Of a DNA stretch of 45,328 nt, positions 9,872-45,315 are shown piece by piece. This stretch comes from Salinarchaeum sp. (GTDB taxonomy: Archaea > Halobacteriota > Halobacteria > Halobacteriales > QS-1-68-20). The first letter of the stretch is position 1. Every line of letters begins with the position of its first letter. Both the position numbers and the translations under genes were made by a program. The notes below the pieces were generated by a model, which worked only from the letters and a program-made list of their open reading frames with translations, ran no database searches and had not been told where the DNA came from. The stretch lies in contig SKSS01000095.1 of assembly GCA_007122875.1 (NCBI GenBank), forward strand, positions 1-45,328, written 5' to 3'.

Positions 9872-11539
9872 ATGCGTCACGCACAGGGACCCCTTCTTTC
9901 GATCGACGTGGGAGAGCGAACCGCCGAAACCATCGACATCGACGACCGGCTGGCCGAGTTCGTCGGTGGCCGTGCGCTCGCGACCAGCCTTGCTCACGAG
10001 CGGATTCCGTTCGACGCCGACCCGTTCGGCCCCGAGAACGCCGTCTACCTCTCGACTGGGCCGCTCCAGGTGTCGGAGATGAGCTTCACGGGCCGGATGA
10101 ACGCGACTGCGCTGTCGCCACTGACCGACGGCCTCCTGTCGACGAACGCGGGAGGCTATCTCTCGCGAAACTTCGCCGATACGGGGCATCCGATCGTCGA
10201 GATCACCGGCGAAAGCGACGAACTGCTCGCGATTCACGTCACTGACGAGGGCGTCGAGTTCGAGGAGGTGCCGGAACTGGCGGGGGCGCTCGTCTCCGAA
10301 GTCACCGAGGAACTTGATGAGCGCCACGGGCTGGAGGCGGAGAACCTGGTCACGATCGGACCGGCGGGTGAGAACCTCGTCCGGTTCGCCTGCCTGATGA
10401 CCTACGACAGTCGTGCGTTCGGCCGCGGCGGACTGGGTGCCGTCCTTGGATCGAAGAACGTCAAGACGATCTCGTTCCGCGGAGACTCCCCGCCGGAGAT
10501 CGACATGCCGAGCGACGCGCAGATGGAGGTCCACCGGGAGGCGGCCACCGCCGACGACATGATGAAACGGCAGGGGACGACCTCGGGGACGGAGTTCATC
10601 AACGACAACTTCTCGCTGCCGACCCGGTACTTCTCGGAGATGAGCTTCGAGGACGTCGAGGGGATCGGCGGGAACGCCGTCGAGGAGAAAAAGTACAAGA
10701 AGGGGGCGTGTTCGGTGTGTGCGTTCGCCTGTAAGCTCCCGACCCGCGACGAGGAGACCGGCCTCGAAACAGAGGGCCCGGAGTTCGAGACCGTGTTCTC
10801 GTTCGGCTCGAACACCGGCATCGGAAACGTCGTGGACGTGATGCAGTCGAACGAACTGTGCGATCAGCTCGGCATGGATACGATCAGCTGTGGGAACACG
10901 GTCGCCGCCTATCTCGCGTCCGAAGACGAGTTCGGAAACGCCGACCTCGTTCACGAGACCGTCGAGAAGATTGCCCACCGCGAGGGGATCGGCGATAAAC
11001 TCGCGGAAGGCGTCGAGCGCTGTCACGAGGAACTCGGCGTTGACAACTGGACGATGAAGGGGATGTCCTTCGCGGCCCACGACGGCCGTGCGCTCCATGG
11101 CCAGGGTCTCTCGTATGCGGTCGCCAACCGCGGCGCAGACCACATGTACGCATCGATGCTCTCGTTGGAGTACGACGGAACCCTCCCCGCAGAGGGGCTC
11201 GACGACAAGGCCGAGGTGCTGATCCAGCGTGAGAACTACAACGCGTTCCGCGACACCGGCATCGTGTGTGCGTTCGGCAGCGGCTACGTCACCGACGACT
11301 ACCTCGAAACCCTGTTCGACGCCGAGATGGACGATCTGCTCGCCGTCGGCGCGAAGACGGTCGAACTCGAACGGCACTTCAACAACCAGCGCGGGATGAA
11401 TCGGGGTGATGACGAGGACATGCCCTACGAGCTGCCGGACTTCGAGAGCGCGCTCGATGAGTACTACGAACTACGCGGCTGGAACGACGACGGCACCGTT
11501 CCGGACGGGGACGTGGCGGAGTACGCGAGCGCGGACTGA
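9872..11539 (+). CDS. aor: aldehyde:ferredoxin oxidoreductase family (tungsto/molybdopterin enzyme)
   Basis: 555 aa from ATG 9872 (the track ORF starts at TTG 9860). AOR N-terminal domain (SIDVGERT.., GGRALATSL, GPENAVYLSTGPL). [4Fe-4S] CxxCxxxC in GACSVCAFAC. Confidence 0.85.
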   Translation: MRHAQGPLLSIDVGERTAETIDIDDRLAEFVGGRALATSLAHERIPFDADPFGPENAVYLSTGPLQVSEMSFTGRMNATALSPLTDGLLSTNAGGYLSRNFADTGHPIVEITGESDELLAIHVTDEGVEFEEVPELAGALVSEVTEELDERHGLEAENLVTIGPAGENLVRFACLMTYDSRAFGRGGLGAVLGSKNVKTISFRGDSPPEIDMPSDAQMEVHREAATADDMMKRQGTTSGTEFINDNFSLPTRYFSEMSFEDVEGIGGNAVEEKKYKKGACSVCAFACKLPTRDEETGLETEGPEFETVFSFGSNTGIGNVVDVMQSNELCDQLGMDTISCGNTVAAYLASEDEFGNADLVHETVEKIAHREGIGDKLAEGVERCHEELGVDNWTMKGMSFAAHDGRALHGQGLSYAVANRGADHMYASMLSLEYDGTLPAEGLDDKAEVLIQRENYNAFRDTGIVCAFGSGYVTDDYLETLFDAEMDDLLAVGAKTVELERHFNNQRGMNRGDDEDMPYELPDFESALDEYYELRGWNDDGTVPDGDVAEYASAD

Positions 11540-13916: not shown

Positions 13917-14321
13917 ATGGAATCGCTCGAACACTTCGTGATCGGCTCGGTGGCCGCCGCCCTCGCGCTCGTTCCTCTCGCCGAGCGGTTTTCCATTCCG
14001 GTGTTACTCGTGCTGTTCGCGGTCGGTGTCGTGCTGAGCGTCCTGATCGACCTCGATCACTTCGTCCTCGCTCGACTTCGCGTCGGCGACTGGCGACACC
14101 TCCGTCGGGTTCTCGGCGATCCGACGAACGCCCTCTCCGGACAGGGGTGGATCTTCGAGGGCGTCGAACTCGAACGCGAACGGCTGGTGAGCCATCTCGT
14201 CGTGGGACTCGTGCTGGTCGGGGTCGGAGCCGCACTCAACCCGGCGGCCGGGGCGTTCCTGGCCGCCGTGATCGCGGTTCACGTCGTGTGTGACGTGCTT
14301 CGGGACCGAGAGATCGCGTGA
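13917..14321 (+). CDS. integral membrane protein, function unknown
   Basis: 134 aa, 1-nt gap after the ctaB stop, about 4 hydrophobic helices, LIDLDHF motif. Confidence 0.5.
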   Translation: MESLEHFVIGSVAAALALVPLAERFSIPVLLVLFAVGVVLSVLIDLDHFVLARLRVGDWRHLRRVLGDPTNALSGQGWIFEGVELERERLVSHLVVGLVLVGVGAALNPAAGAFLAAVIAVHVVCDVLRDREIA

Positions 14322-14385
14322 TCGCGTCGTTCTGTCAACTCCGCACACTGGACCCCGTTCGATGGCTGGGGACGCCGTGTGTGAC

Positions 14386-15669
14386 CTACGAGGACGCTCG
14401 ATACTCGGGGAGAATCTCCCCGTCTTCGACCACGATCTGCCCATGTTTCAGCACGTACTCCCGGTTGGCCATGCCGATGGCGGCCCACTGCCGGGACGGC
14501 TCGTCGAAGACGACCAGATCGGCGTTCGACCCCTCGGCGATCCCGTACTCGTCGTCGATTCCCAGCACAACTGCACCCTGGTACGTGGCGAGATCCCAGA
14601 GGAAGTCGTATCCTGCGTTCGATTCGGTCCAGCGATACGTTTCGCGGCTGGGATCCGCTCCGATGAGCTTCTGGGCCATCACCGCGAGTCCGAACAGCGT
14701 ATCGCCATCACCGGACGGAAGCACGAAGTCTCTGGTGTTGTCGGTGCCGTGACCGAGCGGAATCCCTGCCCCGACGATCTCTCGAAGGGGCATTTCGTAG
14801 CGGACGCTGTTGTAGCACGTCACCATCTTGAGGTTGATCGATTGAGCCGCATCGAGGAGCGTATCGAGCTGTTCGGGAGACGCTTGCGCGAGCGAGAAAC
14901 AGTGACTCGCCGTCACTCGCCCCTCGTACCCCCGCGCTCGGGTTTCCGTGACGAGCTGGTCGAGCGTCCGGTGTCCGAGCGTGCCGTGATCCTGTATGTG
15001 AACGTCGAGATCGATGTCGTAGTCCGTTGCCACGTCGAACCACGTTTCGATCGTTCTCGGGATGTCCCTGTTTCTCGATCCCGGATCGGCCCCACCGATC
15101 AGCACGTCGCGCTCGTCGTCGACCGCGGACAGCCCCATCTCGATCGCCTCACGGACCTGCTCTTCGCCACCCTCGGCAGTAATGCCGCCGTACGACGCGG
15201 GAACGAGCTGGAGATCGACGAGATCGGCCGTTCGTTCCTTCGCCTCGAGGCACGCTTTCATCGTGTCCGTCCCGATCGAATGATCGACGCCCACGTGGGT
15301 ACGAACGTACGTCGCTCCCGACGCGGACGCCTTCTCGATCGCTCGGACTGCGTTCTCGACGATCTCGTCGAACGGCGTCGTGTCGTAGTGTCTGTCGAAC
15401 TGGGCGTTGATGTCGCCGGAGATTTCGGGATCGTCGACCTCCTTCGGCTTGCGATCCCCAGCGATCGCGAACGCCCGATCGATGTGTTTGTGACTGTCGA
15501 CGAAGCCGGGCGAGACCAGATTCTCCTTGGCGTCGATTTCGGTCTCGCCGGTTGCCGAACCGGGATCACCGATTGCTGTTATTTTCCCGCCGTCGATAGC
15601 GATGTCCACGACGCGGTCACGATCCTGTAGGTAGGCGTTTTTGATAACCGTCTCTGGTGATTCCGACAT
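14386..15669 (-). CDS. metal-dependent amidohydrolase (cytosine deaminase / AtzC-like)
   Basis: 427 aa. GFVDSHKHID (HxH metal ligands), DLDVHIQDH, GHGTDN. Overall amidohydrolase_1 layout. Confidence 0.8.
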   Translation of the reverse strand: MSESPETVIKNAYLQDRDRVVDIAIDGGKITAIGDPGSATGETEIDAKENLVSPGFVDSHKHIDRAFAIAGDRKPKEVDDPEISGDINAQFDRHYDTTPFDEIVENAVRAIEKASASGATYVRTHVGVDHSIGTDTMKACLEAKERTADLVDLQLVPASYGGITAEGGEEQVREAIEMGLSAVDDERDVLIGGADPGSRNRDIPRTIETWFDVATDYDIDLDVHIQDHGTLGHRTLDQLVTETRARGYEGRVTASHCFSLAQASPEQLDTLLDAAQSINLKMVTCYNSVRYEMPLREIVGAGIPLGHGTDNTRDFVLPSGDGDTLFGLAVMAQKLIGADPSRETYRWTESNAGYDFLWDLATYQGAVVLGIDDEYGIAEGSNADLVVFDEPSRQWAAIGMANREYVLKHGQIVVEDGEILPEYRASS

Positions 15670-41453: not shown

Positions 41454-41698
41454 ATGAGTTCGGAATACGACACCACGAATGCGCTCGACTGAAGGGACAG
41501 TCCTGCCCGATGCCGATCATCAAGACCAAGCAGGCGATCGACGACCTCGACGGCGGGGACATACTGGAAGTCGTAGCGACCGATTCAGGCAGCATGAGCG
41601 ACATTCAAGGCTGGGCGGATGGCACCGACGGAGTCGAACTCCTCGACCAGGTCGAGGATGGCGACCGTTACACCCATTACGTCAAGAAAGCAGAATAG
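41454..41698 (+). pseudogene. TusA-like sulfurtransferase, interrupted by a 1-nt frameshift
   Basis: ATG 41454 gives MSSEYDTTNALD then TGA at 41490. The -1 frame continues LKGQSCPMPIIKTKQAIDDLDGGDILEVVATDSGSMSDIQGWA.. to TAG 41698. There is no usable start in the CPMP frame. Confidence 0.6.
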
Positions 41699-41699
41699 C

Positions 41700-42038
41700 A
41701 TGAGCACGGAAAACCAAACGATATCGGCCGACAACGCCGTGATCGATGCCGCGGAGTTGCAAGCGCTGCGCGAGCGCGTTGACGAACTCGAGGCGTCGGT
41801 CGCCGATAGCGACTCTGGCCACGATCAGAAAACGATGACCATCGTCGCCACCCAGGGGAGTTTCGATATGGGGTATCCGCCGCTGATCCTCGGGAGCACG
41901 GCCGCCGCGTTCGGCTGGGACGTCGTCATTTTCCACACGTTCTGGGGACTCGGCATTCTTCACAAGGAGAAGTCGAAGAACCTCAAGTTGAGCGCCGTTG
42001 GGAACCCGAATATCTTTCATCTGCCGTTCGAGAATTAG
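41700..42038 (+). pseudogene. DsrE/DsrF/DrsH-like (DrsE_2) protein, 3'-truncated
   Basis: 112 aa from ATG 41700. ..KTMTIVATQGSFDMGYPPLILGSTAAAFGWDVVIFHTFWGLGIL..LSAVGNPN, then an unrelated FHLPFEN* as the sequence turns AT-rich at ~42013. The expected C-terminal half is absent. Confidence 0.55.
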
Positions 42039-42334
42039 AGAAGTTGGTGTCGAACGGTCGCAAAAGGCCGTTCACGACTGGATTCACGAGGACGATTTAC
42101 AGCGTGGTTCCCCGATTTTTGATTCGAACGCCACGGAAATCGAAACGCCATAGATCGTGTCGCTCGGGCGGTAAAACGACGTGCCTCCTTATTTAGTAAT
42201 AGTTTAGCCACGTCGATCCAGTAACCGCCGAAACGTGGTTGCAGGCCTTCGCCGTCTGGTGGAATTCGTGTGACTAAACAAGGTAGTGATAATTCACCAT
42301 AACATTTTTGTAATTCATACGTTATTATATAACG

Positions 42335-42781
42335 ATGGTAGATAGGCCTGGCGCGGAGAGTATCAGTGGTGCCGAGGTCGAAATCGACGGAACGCAGGTT
42401 GACGGGTGGACTGAAATAACGCTGCCGAGTCAGACGACGGAAGCAGGGGAGTACAGGGACGGTGATGACCCCGCCTACGAGAAGAAAATCTGGGGGCAGA
42501 CGACGCTCGGAACGCTCACGATGGAGCGCGAACTTCTGTCGTCGGACGAAACGGTGCTCTGGGAGTGGAGCCAGAAGATTCGGCAGGGTGACACCGATGG
42601 GGGTCGCAGAAGTCTCGAAATAACGTTCTTCGACGGGGAGGGCGGAGAGCACTCCCTCTGGACGTTCGAGGGCGCCTGGATTCAACACTACGAACCACCG
42701 GGGCTGGACACCTCGAACGACGAGACAGCAAAGGAGCGAATCGTCGTCGCGTTCGGCGCTATGAAACGCGAGGAGCTGTGA
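42335..42781 (+). CDS. T4 gp19-like contractile-tail tube protein family (phage tail protein)
   Basis: 148 aa. ..EVEIDGTQVDGWTEI.., EYRDG, TLTMEREL, LWEWSQKI, RRSLEITFFDGEG, WTFEGAWIQHYEPPGLDTSNDE..ERIVVAF matches the tail-tube (Afp1/gp19) pattern. Confidence 0.75.
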   Translation: MVDRPGAESISGAEVEIDGTQVDGWTEITLPSQTTEAGEYRDGDDPAYEKKIWGQTTLGTLTMERELLSSDETVLWEWSQKIRQGDTDGGRRSLEITFFDGEGGEHSLWTFEGAWIQHYEPPGLDTSNDETAKERIVVAFGAMKREEL

Positions 42782-42788
42782 TCCGAGG

Positions 42789-43607
42789 ATGACCGACACA
42801 GGTAACCACCCCGAGGATGACGAGGTGTCCACGGAACGACTGGCCGACATCGAGGACGCGCCCGGCCACGCGGAGGAGAGCGGCGAAAGTGCCGACGATA
42901 CGCTCACGACGTGTTCGACTAGATGCACTCCGACCCAACGACTGTCGAGACGATCCGTTCTACTGGGGGTCGGTGGAGTCGGACTCCTCGCCTCCGGGGT
43001 CGGACTCGGTAACGCACGCGAGGCCCGCGTTTCGTCCACTCCGTCGAGCGTCTTCGTTCAGTCAGCAGCGGCACTCTCGCAGTCCACGACCCTGCAGGAG
43101 TCTGCACACGCGTTCGGCAACGGGGCTAGAGCAGTTCACGAGGGCGCGTTTGTGATCGCCGACTCGTCGCCACAATCGTTCAGTTCCAAGCAACCAGACG
43201 AGGTTCGAACACAGATGCCGATCTATGCCCCGGCGTTTAACACGACCAGCGCCCGTGCCGCGAAAACTGATCTCGATCCGGTCGATCCCCGGACGATTCT
43301 CGAGGGCGTCGAAGACTTACCGATCCACACGTGGCGGTTCGCCGACAACTCCACGCACGGCGACGACGTTCGACACATCGGTCCGATGGCCGAGGACTTC
43401 CACGACGCGTTTGACCTCGACGGGCCCGACGACGCCATCGCTACCGTCGACGCCGATGGGGTCGCACTAGCAGCCATCAAGGGACTTCTCGATCGACTCG
43501 AATCCGATAACCGATATCTCGAGGAGGAACTAGACGAGCGACGAGAGCGACTCGTGGAACTTGAGTCCCAGCTTGCAGACATCGAAGCCGGGGTCGCTGA
43601 AGAATGA
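42789..43607 (+). CDS. exported tail-fibre-like protein with C-terminal peptidase S74 intramolecular chaperone domain
   Basis: 272 aa. Twin-arginine motif LSRRSVLLGVGGVGLLASG. S-x4-K dyad NTTS(154)ARAAK(159). ..LPIHTWRF..VRHIGPMAEDF..ATVDADGVALAAIKGL plus a coiled coil. Starts 7 nt after the tube gene stop. Confidence 0.7.
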   Translation: MTDTGNHPEDDEVSTERLADIEDAPGHAEESGESADDTLTTCSTRCTPTQRLSRRSVLLGVGGVGLLASGVGLGNAREARVSSTPSSVFVQSAAALSQSTTLQESAHAFGNGARAVHEGAFVIADSSPQSFSSKQPDEVRTQMPIYAPAFNTTSARAAKTDLDPVDPRTILEGVEDLPIHTWRFADNSTHGDDVRHIGPMAEDFHDAFDLDGPDDAIATVDADGVALAAIKGLLDRLESDNRYLEEELDERRERLVELESQLADIEAGVAEE

Positions 43608-43682
43608 GTCGCCAACCGGTCATCGCGCACGTGATTCCGTACTACAGCGGATGGGAACGTACGTACCCAAGGAGAGGTAATC

Positions 43683-44459
43683 ATGGTCGATGAGGCCGAA
43701 AGGGACGACAGGGAGCGATCACCGGAGGGTGTCGTCGAAGCAGACCCAGTAAATGCTGACGTGTCCCTCTCCCACCGTATCGGGGTTGGGGTGGCGTCGA
43801 TCGGAGCTGCGATGTCGCTTGCAGGCTGCAACGCTGAGGTCTCCTTGGACGACGAGGAAGAATCGTCGGAAGCCGACGACAGTGAGGAGTCCGATGCGGA
43901 CGACAGTGAGGAATCCGATGCGGACGACAGTGAGGAATCCGATGCGGACGGCCATACTCACTCGTACGGCCGAGGATCGAACGCAATCCACGAAGGTGTG
44001 TTTCTGATCGCCGACTCGTCGCCACAATCGTTCAGCTCCAAACGGCCAGACGAGGTTCGTACACAGATGCCGATCTATGCCCCGGCGTTTAACACGACCA
44101 GCGCCCGCGCCGCGAAAACTGGTCTCGACCCGGTCGACCCCCGGACGATTCTCGAGGGCGTCGAAGACTTACCGATCCACACGTGGCGGTTCGCCGACAA
44201 CTCCGTCCACGGTGACGGTGTTCGACACCTCGGGCCGATGGTCGAAGACTTCCACGACGCGTTCGATCTCGACGAGCCCGACGACGCCATCGCTACCGTC
44301 GACGCTGATGGGGTCGTATTCGCAGCCATTCAGGGGACTCTCAACCGGCTCAAGACGAGAAACAAGAATCTACGGGCAGAGCTGAAGACGTTGGACGTCC
44401 AAATTGACGAGGTGGAATCACGACTCGATCGTGTCGCGTCCGAACGTGACGAGCCTTGA
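43683..44459 (+). CDS. tail-fibre-like lipoprotein paralogue with S74 intramolecular chaperone domain
   Basis: 258 aa. Hydrophobic segment plus lipobox IGVGVASIGAAMSLAGC, 3 x DDSEESDA, the same FLIADSSPQSF..NTTS(140)ARAAK(145).. S74 block, coiled coil. GGAGAGG lies 6 nt before the ATG. Confidence 0.7.
   Translation: MVDEAERDDRERSPEGVVEADPVNADVSLSHRIGVGVASIGAAMSLAGCNAEVSLDDEEESSEADDSEESDADDSEESDADDSEESDADGHTHSYGRGSNAIHEGVFLIADSSPQSFSSKRPDEVRTQMPIYAPAFNTTSARAAKTGLDPVDPRTILEGVEDLPIHTWRFADNSVHGDGVRHLGPMVEDFHDAFDLDEPDDAIATVDADGVVFAAIQGTLNRLKTRNKNLRAELKTLDVQIDEVESRLDRVASERDEP
43875..43946 (+). repeat. 3 x 24-nt in-frame tandem repeat (gacgacagtgagga(g/a)tccgatgcg = DDSEESDA)
   Basis: Units at 43875-43898, 43899-43922 and 43923-43946. 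There is one substitution between unit 1 and units 2/3. Confidence 0.9.
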
Positions 44460-44516: not shown

Positions 44517-45146
44517 AGTTAGTAGCATTGTGCCAACGAGCGGATTTTTACAATCAATCTCCGGCGGTTTCTGGTTCGACGTGACTGAAGCAATTCGAGA
44601 ACGACGAGGTTCGTCGGTTCAGCTCTCGAAAGATTCGTTCGACAGCGCTCCGATTTCCGTGGCGACATATCTGAAATCGGAGGCCAACTCGTTGCAATGC
44701 AGTTTGGAGGTGTTTCGCGCCGTCAACAAGAAAGACGGCAGTTTCGAAATCGTGTTTTTGTCGCAGTTCGCGGAGAAATATCTCGGTGATGAGGGTTGTC
44801 ATCGTCGAAAACAATCGGACGTGAAGCAGTTGATTCATAGCTGGATCAGCAGCAGCGTACAGCCAGAACTGCTGATCGTTAATCCGAATCACTGTCTCGT
44901 CAACGGCGGCCTGATTCGGAGACTGTTTTACCCGGATTCTTCGCCGCAACATCCAGCACCAGTTCAATATCCGAACCCATTTACACTTCTTGACTCCGGT
45001 GAATCGCTGGAAAGCGCCGACTTGATCCGTTACAACGAGGGAGTTGAAACGGGAAACAGCGGATGCTTCATGTTATCGAGAGTTCTGTAAAATCGTCCTG
45101 ATCTGTGTCGTCTACAACATCAAGCGTGCAATCATACAATAAAATC
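44512..45146 (-). mobile_element. decayed IS6-family insertion sequence (transposase pseudogene)
   Basis: Track ORF 44554..44967 encodes the DDE core (..AVDETVIRINDQQFWLYAAADP..VFLVDGA..RHGNRSAVERIFRELNRRTSSFSNCFSHVEPETA). The N-terminal HTH part (44968-45100) is broken by stops or frame changes, and the C-terminus is cut short. The ends form imperfect inverted repeats (ttttagttagtagcattgtgcc / gcgtgcaatcatacaataaaa). Boundaries approximate. Confidence 0.5.
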
Positions 45147-45211: not shown

Positions 45212-45315
45212 TAGTCCCGGGCGGATTCGAACCGCCGTCAATGGCTGTCTTCCGCGACGAGCGGAACTCGGTCACGTCCAAAGGCCATCATGATTGGCCG
45301 CTACACCACGGGACT
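45212..45315 (-). tRNA. tRNA-Gln(UUG) with a 31-nt intron at the canonical 37/38 position
   Basis: Minus strand: acceptor AGTCCCG/CGGGACT plus discriminator A. Anticodon stem ATGGC/GCCAT with loop CTTTGG^A. T arm GGCGG-TTCGAAT-CCGCC. The intron (45247-45277) interrupts the anticodon loop. Mature length is 73 nt. Confidence 0.85.

Follow-up and report, generated by a model that had tools for sequence, protein, structure and literature searches.

What do three genes that resemble parts of a contractile tail do among the housekeeping genes of a haloarchaeon? This question is raised by the right-hand end of a 45,328-nt stretch of DNA from Salinarchaeum sp. (GenBank assembly GCA_007122875.1, contig SKSS01000095.1, positions 1 to 45,328, forward strand), which is called the window throughout. 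The three genes, referred to together as the triad, all lie on the plus strand. g1 (42335-42781, +, 148 aa) encodes a Cis1/Afp1-type inner-tube fold without signal peptide; g2 (42789-43607, +, 272 aa) encodes a type-A mini-fibre, recognized by PF13884, by an AlphaFold2 (AF2) model compared with Foldseek and by a family alignment; and g3 (43683-44459, +, 258 aa) encodes a type-B mini-fibre, recognized by PF13884, its lipobox and its orthologues. The other 41 genes of the window are metabolic or housekeeping genes. The best explanation, to which we give about an even chance, is that the triad is a domesticated, envelope-directed module of tube and mini-fibres, which derives from the inner tube of a contractile injection system (CIS) and a phage- or CIS-type fibre gene and has no sheath, baseplate or spike.

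Tube proteins are familiar from phage tails, CIS and type VI secretion systems (T6SS), contractile machines whose tubes are assembled in the cytoplasm. Profile and fold confirm that g1 is a CIS inner-tube protein of the Cis1/Afp1 type. It matched PF06841 with E=9.5e-22 and 77.7 bits (cutoff 28.2) and TIGR02241 with 74 bits (cutoff 62.4); CIS1_fam was the best NCBIfam model, but with 85 bits against an equivalog cutoff of 220. A profile of g1 and its relatives matched the solved Cis1/Alg1/Pvc1/Afp1 tubes (Anabaena tCIS, AlgoCIS, PVC and Afp). The AF2 monomer model (pLDDT 78) shows the beta-sandwich tube fold, and Foldseek aligned it with probability 1.0 and TM 0.65-0.74 to Cis1 (7b5h), Alg1 (7adz), Pvc1 (6j0b) and Afp1/5 (6rao). 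PF06841, TIGR02241 and AF2/Foldseek thus agree with the first-pass annotation, in which g1 was read as a contractile-tail tube protein. In fold and family g1 belongs with the Cis1/Afp1/Pvc1 tubes, including those of the haloarchaeal T6SS-like CIS (Zachs et al. 2024, PMC11566945), and it has the same length, 148 aa, as the sheath-adjacent tubes of the haloarchaeal CIS loci L008, L010, L018 and L021, to which it is 44-48% identical. Unlike CIS tubes, g1 lies near no gene for a sheath, second tube, baseplate, spike, Pvc16 or ATPase and is followed by genes for S74 mini-proteins; it is only ~30% identical to Cis1 of H. borinquense, and sister clades in its family carry twin-arginine (Tat) or lipoprotein signals.

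It was also proposed that g2 and g3 are paralogues with a C-terminal S74 chaperone domain, and this holds. The score against PF13884 (cutoff 22) was 31.3 bits for g2 and 22.1 bits, a marginal value, for g3, and the top seven Foldseek matches of the g2 AF2 model in the PDB were all intramolecular chaperone (ICA) domains, namely MyRF-ICA, the GA-1 chaperone and the endoNF chaperone (7dc3, probability 0.99; 3gud, 0.98; 3gw6, 0.4-0.6), with modest E-values of 0.02-0.7 and TM to target of 0.43-0.48. Neither g2 nor the family profile reached a solved S74 structure in sequence searches, which gave coiled-coil noise only. The g2 protein consists of an acidic disordered N-region, RR with an uncharged segment, a linker, a 45-aa beta stub, a 119-aa S74/ICA domain and a terminal coiled coil. 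In g3, HR with a hydrophobic segment is followed by the lipobox, acidic repeats, the 45-aa stub, the S74/ICA domain and a paralogue-specific coiled coil.

The Ser-x4-Lys dyad, which had been reported for both proteins, is present in the motif NTTS/ARAAK (the slash marks the predicted cut). The predicted autocleavage dyad is formed by Ser154 (43248-43250) and Lys159 (43263-43265) in g2 (43248-43265, +) and by Ser140 (44100-44102) and Lys145 (44115-44117) in g3 (44100-44117, +). The alignment of 40 family members shows an invariant Lys and at least 90% conservation of the Ser, and g2 and g3 are predicted to cleave themselves. The spacing of Ser and Lys is the same as in endoNF and MyRF. The only structured part before the cleavage Ser is the 45-residue beta stub (FGNGARAVHEGAFVIADSS...PIYAPAFNTT, 43113-43247, + in g2), defined by the AF2 model and the family alignment; it is modelled as three short strands with pLDDT >90, and it is conserved in the archaeal and bacterial members of the same 40-member alignment. 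In g3 the acidic linker from the lipobox side to the stub is encoded by a 24-nt tandem repeat of 3.2 copies (43875-43950, +; TRF), which yields the three DDSEESDA units noted earlier and varies in copy number between strains. It was also observed that FNTTS (43239-43250 and 44091-44102) places an N-T-T N-glycosylation sequon directly before the cleavage Ser; this sequon is found in haloarchaeal family members, including the signal-less type C described below, and not in bacterial members.

The stub and S74 core is 86% identical between g2 and g3, and a block of 360 nt within the two genes is near-identical (88-100% DNA identity). The core identity of A and B proteins within one genome (86% in the window, 83% in locus L007) is higher than that of orthologues between these genomes (74% and 70%), which suggests that the cores were homogenized by gene conversion. 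The C-terminal coiled coils are paralogue-specific (A-A 62-85%, B-B 46-65%, A-B 25-41%). Homogenized cores with distinct tails fit two separate homotrimers, which would present the same stub.

Among the known S74 proteins, endosialidase endoNF, the T5 L-shaped fibre pb1, the GA-1 neck appendage and the S74 'shell' genes of extracellular CIS (eCIS) (PMC8213781) share with g2 and g3 the C-terminal domain, the Ser-x4-Lys dyad and a beta segment before the cleavage site. Unlike these phage and eCIS fibres, g2 and g3 would keep ~45 structured residues after the predicted cleavage and not hundreds, carry export-type N-terminal signals in place of a virion-attachment domain, and are cellular, chromosomal genes with the signature of purifying selection. 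MyRF, which gave the best structural match to the g2 model, shows the ICA domain in non-viral use: the protein is membrane-tethered, and its self-cleavage depends on trimerization and separates two parts. However, the ICA domain of MyRF is cytoplasmic, lies upstream of the membrane span and frees a transcription factor, whereas the hydrophobic segment of g2 and g3 is N-terminal and cleavage would free the chaperone and keep the stub.

The three genes are co-directional, with gaps of 7 nt (g1-g2) and 75 nt (g2-g3), exactly as first described. Two ribosome-site motifs were also proposed; GGAGAGG, 6 nt 5' of the g3 ATG, stands, but GAGG lies directly against the g2 ATG and is doubtful as a Shine-Dalgarno sequence because of this 0-nt spacing. 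A TATA-box-like element TTTTTGTAAT (42305-42314, +), read from the sequence in an AT-rich stretch at -30..-21 of the g1 ATG, is a candidate archaeal promoter and would fit a leaderless operon transcript. The GC content of the window is of haloarchaeal type (0.64-0.69) and falls to 0.54-0.61 over the last 5 kb. No PHROG head, tail or integration family was found among the 41 other genes. In comparison with four haloarchaeal CIS loci, the 45-kb window gave no match to sheath, GPD hub, LysM-tube, Pvc16, eCIS_core or a second tube, and g1 was the only open reading frame (ORF) resembling any ORF of these loci. The earlier statement that the window lacks sheath, baseplate, spike and virus genes is borne out, since both comparisons were empty except for g1; sheath, baseplate, capsid, terminase and integrase genes are absent from the window, which stops 870 nt past g3 at a tRNA gene. 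This absence is limited on the 3' side, because a sister metagenome contig also ends just past the operon.

The isolation of the triad raises the possibility that it is a functionless, decaying remnant of a CIS or provirus, stranded by a rearrangement mediated by insertion sequences (IS). In the local context, which is rearranged, the DsrE gene is truncated and both IS copies are degenerate, and the window tube is the most divergent of its clade. However, none of the three ORFs is disrupted in any strain variant, the catalytic dyad and the fold are retained, the same gene order and tight spacing occur at three unrelated sites, and dN/dS is 0.21-0.30 even between distant triads. Such a remnant is therefore very improbable and already largely refuted.

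Homologous triads were sought in haloarchaeal genomes and found, with no sheath or baseplate gene within 10 kb of them. With g1 alone, the reference-genome scan gave 4 loci and the word-indexed search 3 proteins, and alignment-based queries were used for the wider family. S74 mini-proteins of 200-300 aa gave 1063 matches in haloarchaea and bacteria. The haloarchaeal proteins are of type A, with an acidic N-region, RR and an uncharged stretch (as g2); type B, with RR or HR, a lipobox and an acidic linker (as g3); or type C, which is signal-less and has a conserved 'NHDYNTP..DWH.PLN.NF..LD' domain. The N-terminal domain of type C had no Pfam, PHROG or NCBIfam match. The exact triad of tube, type A and type B is present in three unrelated chromosomal neighbourhoods: the window, L007, where it adjoins subtilase and DUF4397 genes, and L028/L029, where it adjoins ribosomal-protein and prefoldin genes. 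A+B pairs apparently occur on two further contigs. In L028, and also in L029, the triad is followed by two small acidic genes of Tat-lipoprotein type (L028 12011-12778 and 12805-13335; MLRRALLVAIAAGLAGC.. and ..RLHRRTVLGGGAAVVLLAGC..), which have no counterpart in the window.

Dyads of a tube and a type-C protein were found in L005, L006 and L012 (three Natronosalvus genomes), L023 and L030/L031, followed by a 122-124-aa protein with a Tat signal and then by a giant PQQ/beta-helix/CARDB protein. In a third sheath-less arrangement, a signal-less tube is followed by a second tube with a Tat signal, a PKD domain and a '..LLLDVINAW' C-terminus. The only genes common to the locus types are tube and S74, and at least 12 contigs apparently appear in both the S74 and the tube match lists. 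Within 10 kb in L005, L006, L007, L012, L028, L030 and L033, no Pfam match to sheath or baseplate was found. Values of dN/dS of 0.06-0.36 for the tube, S74 and 124-aa partner genes indicate that all module genes are under purifying selection. The recurrence of triad and dyads without sheath, at three unrelated sites and elsewhere, together with this selection, disfavours the deletion remnant of a CIS or virus that the first-pass annotation had considered; its alternative of a domesticated module fits both recurrence and selection, and many signal-bearing tube homologues lend it independent support. As a separate observation, a tube, type-C, 122-aa Tat-signal and giant-protein module in L030 (8591-16257) and a tube, Tat-tube-PKD and 1040-aa module in L033 (9187-14748) occupy the same position, directly 3' of a Methyltransf_23/11 gene; two module types at one site suggest exchangeable cassettes. 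An apparent CARDB-tube fusion in L023 (6777-8282) is not claimed: the frame stays open for 350 codons upstream, across a CARDB-like domain, but probably as a gene of its own, with a GTG start for the tube (VDRHGP).

Where did the tubes come from? Sequence comparison clearly traces them to the tube lineage of haloarchaeal CIS loci. In L008, L010, L018 and L021 the sheath gene lies directly upstream of a 148-aa tube, and Pvc16, GPD hub, LysM-tube and eCIS_core are also encoded. The dyad tubes are 71-79% identical to the sheath-adjacent tubes of L008 and L010, and the triad tubes form one long-branched clade, in which the window copy is the most divergent (41-48% identity to CIS tubes). No close tube relatives were found in GenBank phages or IMG/VR, and the best S74 match in viral contigs was only 39% identical.

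The same ancestry would suit an auxiliary module, in which the triad provides an alternative tube with fibre or anchor accessories for a complete CIS encoded elsewhere in the genome, as orphan hcp/vgrG genes do. Besides the 44-79% identity between the tubes and the sheath-adjacent tubes of CIS loci, it may be noted that the eCIS survey lists S74 as a 'shell' domain, enriched in eCIS operons without Afp13 fibre (PMC8213781), that haloarchaeal CIS are membrane-anchored and T6SS-like, so that further envelope components are expected (PMC11566945), and that the window contig ends just past the operon. The orphan hcp/vgrG islands of bacterial T6SS are alike in that a tube-family gene stands alone with small partners, apart from the main machine; those partners, however, are cytoplasmic effectors, immunity proteins and adaptors loaded on the machine, whereas here the partners bear export or lipoprotein signals and the genome has no documented main machine. 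Signals of this kind on g2, g3 and many tube homologues are at odds with CIS, whose assembly is cytoplasmic. No S74 gene was found in L008, L010, L018, L021 or pHBOR03, and a full-length sheath on no Natronosalvus plasmid. CIS are present in only 12% of Halobacteria genomes (PMC11566945), while sheath-less tubes appear common, and the triad tubes are strongly diverged from CIS tubes. The species found with the module are absent from the published list of CIS-positive strains, so that this list is no guide to co-occurrence. We consider an auxiliary role of this kind somewhat unlikely.

The envelope-directed module depends on the export-type signals. The first-pass annotation reported a twin-arginine motif in g2 and a lipobox segment in g3; both are present, but the position of RR in g2 is atypical and g3 has HR. 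In g2 the motif SRRSVLLGVGGVGLLASGVGLGNA (S-R-R-S-V-L) has its RR at residues 54-55, after a long acidic N-region, and the export-type signal (42948-43016, +) comprises R54-R55-S-V-L and a 21-residue uncharged segment, SVLLGVGGVGLLASGVGLGNA. The RR followed by 15-23 uncharged residues is kept in the type-A orthologues P0003, P0004, P0006-P0009 and P0012, and the length of the N-region before RR varies from 25 to 88 aa among orthologues, with the motif itself at residues 26-88. The lipoprotein-type signal of g3 (43773-43835, +) reads HR-IGVGVASIGAAMS-LAGC, with the codon of the lipobox Cys49 at 43827-43829; if translation began instead at a GTG, codon 27 (43761), the protein would start MSLSHRIGV.... 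The orthologue P0010 has RR where g3 has HR (LGRRHLGYGLASTGTVTVLAGC), and an [LV]AGC lipobox is present in all type-B orthologues (P0010, P0024, P0028 and L028:10843-11625). These motifs may direct both proteins to export.

Several observations weigh against such a module. The RR of g2 follows an acidic N-region with a conserved start and lies deeper than expected for a haloarchaeal Tat signal, and the h-region, with a Kyte-Doolittle maximum of 2.07 over 15 residues, might instead serve as a membrane or signal anchor. g3 has HR instead of RR, and g1, with neither an RR motif nor a hydrophobic N-terminus, has no signal although its predicted partners carry export-type signals. The type-C S74 proteins of the dyads have no signal at all, so that export is not universal in the S74 family. 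The window contig ends 0.9 kb past g3, and the same genomes may encode a CIS elsewhere. S74 mini-proteins also occur without a tube, and the 45-aa stub is highly conserved and not variable, unlike a receptor-binding tip. Two 'tail fiber domain-containing' S74 genes without an adjacent tube were seen in L034 (Haladaptatus, 10001-10780), beside a DNA_pol_B fragment, and in L013 (Halalkaliarchaeum pAArc-CO, 14197-15501), a plasmid gene among hypothetical genes and beside a transposase; the context of a bacterial S74 gene on a Deinococcus plasmid was uninformative.

Some of these points would be met by a cytoplasmic mini-assembly, in which the hydrophobic segments are not export signals and the genes form a small particle, intracellular or released by lysis, or fibres whose N-termini anchor them on the cytoplasmic side of the membrane. 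The acidic N-region ahead of RR, atypically long for a Tat signal, suits it, as do the signal-less type-C partners and the equally signal-less 148-aa tubes, and phage S74 fibres are established to mature in the cytoplasm. It is nevertheless unlikely in our view: the RR and uncharged stretch are kept in type-A orthologues while their flanks vary, the lipobox Cys is present in all type-B orthologues, clear short Tat signals are found on the second tubes and the 124-aa partner, and secreted proteins are encoded next door.

An envelope role of the operon becomes more plausible in view of the signal-bearing tubes, which are widespread. The tube-family profile search gave 233 matches at E<=1e-10, and among the 120 of these that were listed, about one-third have a Tat or Tat-lipobox signal before an intact tube domain. 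Tube-fold proteins destined for the cell exterior thus look like a general haloarchaeal feature. The signals are of Tat (..GRRTAMKAAGL..LVGLAS..) or Tat-lipoprotein (..SRREFIRVIEVGGVTVTLAGC..) type and were seen in P0166, P0174-P0176, P0183, P0186, P0189-P0191, P0194, P0197, P0199, P0201, P0202, P0207-P0209, P0211, P0223, P0229, P0230, P0233 and P0237 and in loci L024-L027; some of these proteins are labelled 'cysteine protease' in NCBI records, which looks like misannotation. The three signal-bearing tubes that were looked up come from Natrinema, Halorubrum and an uncultured haloarchaeon; all three stand alone among housekeeping genes and have a Peptidase_M24 gene nearby.

Every sheath-less operon of tube and partner that was examined encodes at least one partner with a Tat signal, and the neighbours are often giant secreted beta-helix/CARDB/PQQ proteins, subtilase or DUF4397. 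The C-terminal motif 'YY(A/T)DD.GV....EAF.DW..G.I.T.LLLDVINAW' is common to the Tat-tube-PKD proteins (L015 4498-5460, L033 10619-11476 and the second tubes of L014, L016, L017 and L019) and to the 122-124-aa Tat-signal proteins (L005 10842-11216, L012 21302-21676 and L030 10836-11204). The motif and the 124-aa partner had no Pfam, PHROG or NCBIfam match. The motif may serve to dock the neighbouring giant beta-helix/CARDB/PQQ proteins.

How might the domesticated, envelope-directed module work? g1 would provide a Cis1-like tube-fold protomer without signal peptide, and g2 and g3 would each fold and trimerize in the cytoplasm via the C-terminal S74/ICA domain, which would then cut itself off at Ser154 (g2, with Lys159) or Ser140 (g3, with Lys145). 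The Tat route accepts folded oligomers. Export of the folded trimers to the outside of the membrane could be directed by the RR/hydrophobic segment in g2 and by the lipobox signal in g3; products of 77 aa (g2, soluble or N-anchored) and 91 aa (g3, lipid-anchored) would remain there, each a flexible linker with the 45-aa beta stub; the lipid anchor of g3 would sit on an acidic linker of variable length. The tube-fold protein would be a partner of the stubs, for example a ring-shaped hub, and may be co-exported by hitch-hiking. Adhesion, cell-cell recognition and envelope scaffolding are the likeliest classes of role. In this scheme we infer export, cleavage, trimer state, tube-fibre contact and biological role alike.

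A wider proposal, which we offer tentatively as possible and no better than that, is that Halobacteria repeatedly domesticated the tube fold and S74 mini-fibres into a Tat-exported, partly lipid-anchored apparatus outside the cell, with a ring of tube-fold proteins as hub for short trimeric stubs, often together with giant beta-helix/CARDB surface proteins. If true, this apparatus would be a previously unrecognized class of archaeal envelope structure and might mediate adhesion or self/non-self recognition, or be the missing extracellular dock or conduit for archaeal T6SS-like machines.

The components are of known kinds, a CIS tube and S74 fibres, in a new combination without sheath. No description of sheath-less tube and S74 operons or of signal-bearing tubes was found in the literature searched, including PMC11566945 and PMC8213781. 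A selected, sheath-less tube with exported, self-cleaving mini-fibres would be a new domestication of tail parts in archaea, the more so in company with the broader group of tube homologues that bear Tat or lipoprotein signals. The module also supplies candidate components of the poorly understood haloarchaeal cell surface, and the idea is directly testable in tractable haloarchaea. For annotation it carries a warning: 'phage tail protein' and 'tail fiber domain-containing protein' in haloarchaea often mark neither proviruses nor CIS loci.

The local mobile context of the triad was missing from the first-pass annotation; inverted IS6-type remnants and a tRNA-Gln integration site were found. 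The left IS6-family transposase remnant (41998-42235, +) is internally deleted, with an N-terminal piece '..KAVHDWIHEDDLQ..', which we assign to IS6 by its likeness to haloarchaeal IS6 transposases, and a C-terminal piece '..RHGNRNAIDRVARAVKRRASLFSN..'. The right remnant (44554-44967, -) keeps the DDE core and lacks the N-terminus; its match to PF13610 (DDE_Tnp_IS240) is weak, with E=2.5e-4, below the cutoff. The two share the inverted repeat I1 (42129-42187 and 44606-44664, 59 nt, 71%), the left flank is 71% identical to the reverse-complemented right flank over 103 nt (blastn), and the frame translations agree. Both remnants are degenerate and inverted, with their 3' ends towards the triad, and bracket it like a composite transposon.

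Beyond the right remnant lies a tRNA-Gln(UUG) gene with a 31-nt intron (45212-45315, -), which was missed by default ARAGORN and recovered by aragorn -i and Rfam (RF00005, 49.6 bits). The window is 99.7% identical to the 46,989-bp metagenome contig L001, the one that ends just past the operon. In L001 (12855-13064) the 13-mer at the 3' end of the tRNA, TAGTCCCGGGCGG, occurs twice, 19 nt apart, and is followed by a new ORF (MTSTEDVQNYGTKFENQLERLRGADIDERDREAILAFVRSED...). This duplication with foreign sequence marks tRNA-Gln as an integration hotspot, which appears occupied in the sister strain. The new ORF was considered as an integrase, but this is unsupported, with no Pfam match, and no second att-like copy of the tRNA 3' end bounding the triad island was found above chance.

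The strain variants all keep the reading frame. L001 (11349-12101) has one DDSEESDA unit fewer, so that its g3 product has 250 aa against 258 in the window. In L002 (609-1427) g2 and g3 have recombined across the 360-nt core with a deletion of 852 bp, leaving a single in-frame gene whose head is of type A and whose tail is of type B, and P0003 is a similar natural A-head/B-tail chimera from another lineage. These chimeras show that the arrangement is plastic.

Such features could mean that the triad is the cargo of mobile elements, with an anti-virus or competition role, for example surface stubs that hide a receptor or serve as decoys, with IS and integration hotspots as the means of spread. 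The inverted IS6-type remnants around the triad, the lower GC than in the rest of the window, the adjoining tRNA integration site, the different neighbourhoods of the module in different genomes, and the repeat-number and recombination variants within one population all speak for it. Against it stand the lack of any match to PADLOC defence families, the lack of mobile-element genes in the Pfam neighbourhoods of L007, L028, L030 and L033, and a stub that is conserved and not diversifying, and we regard it as improbable.

On its outer side, the left IS remnant truncates a sulfur-redox gene cluster (DsrE/TusA/thioredoxin/OsmC): the truncated DsrE/DsrF-like gene (41619-42038, +) matches PF13686 (DrsE_2) only at profile positions 2-65 of 156 and is cut off by the remnant at position 65.

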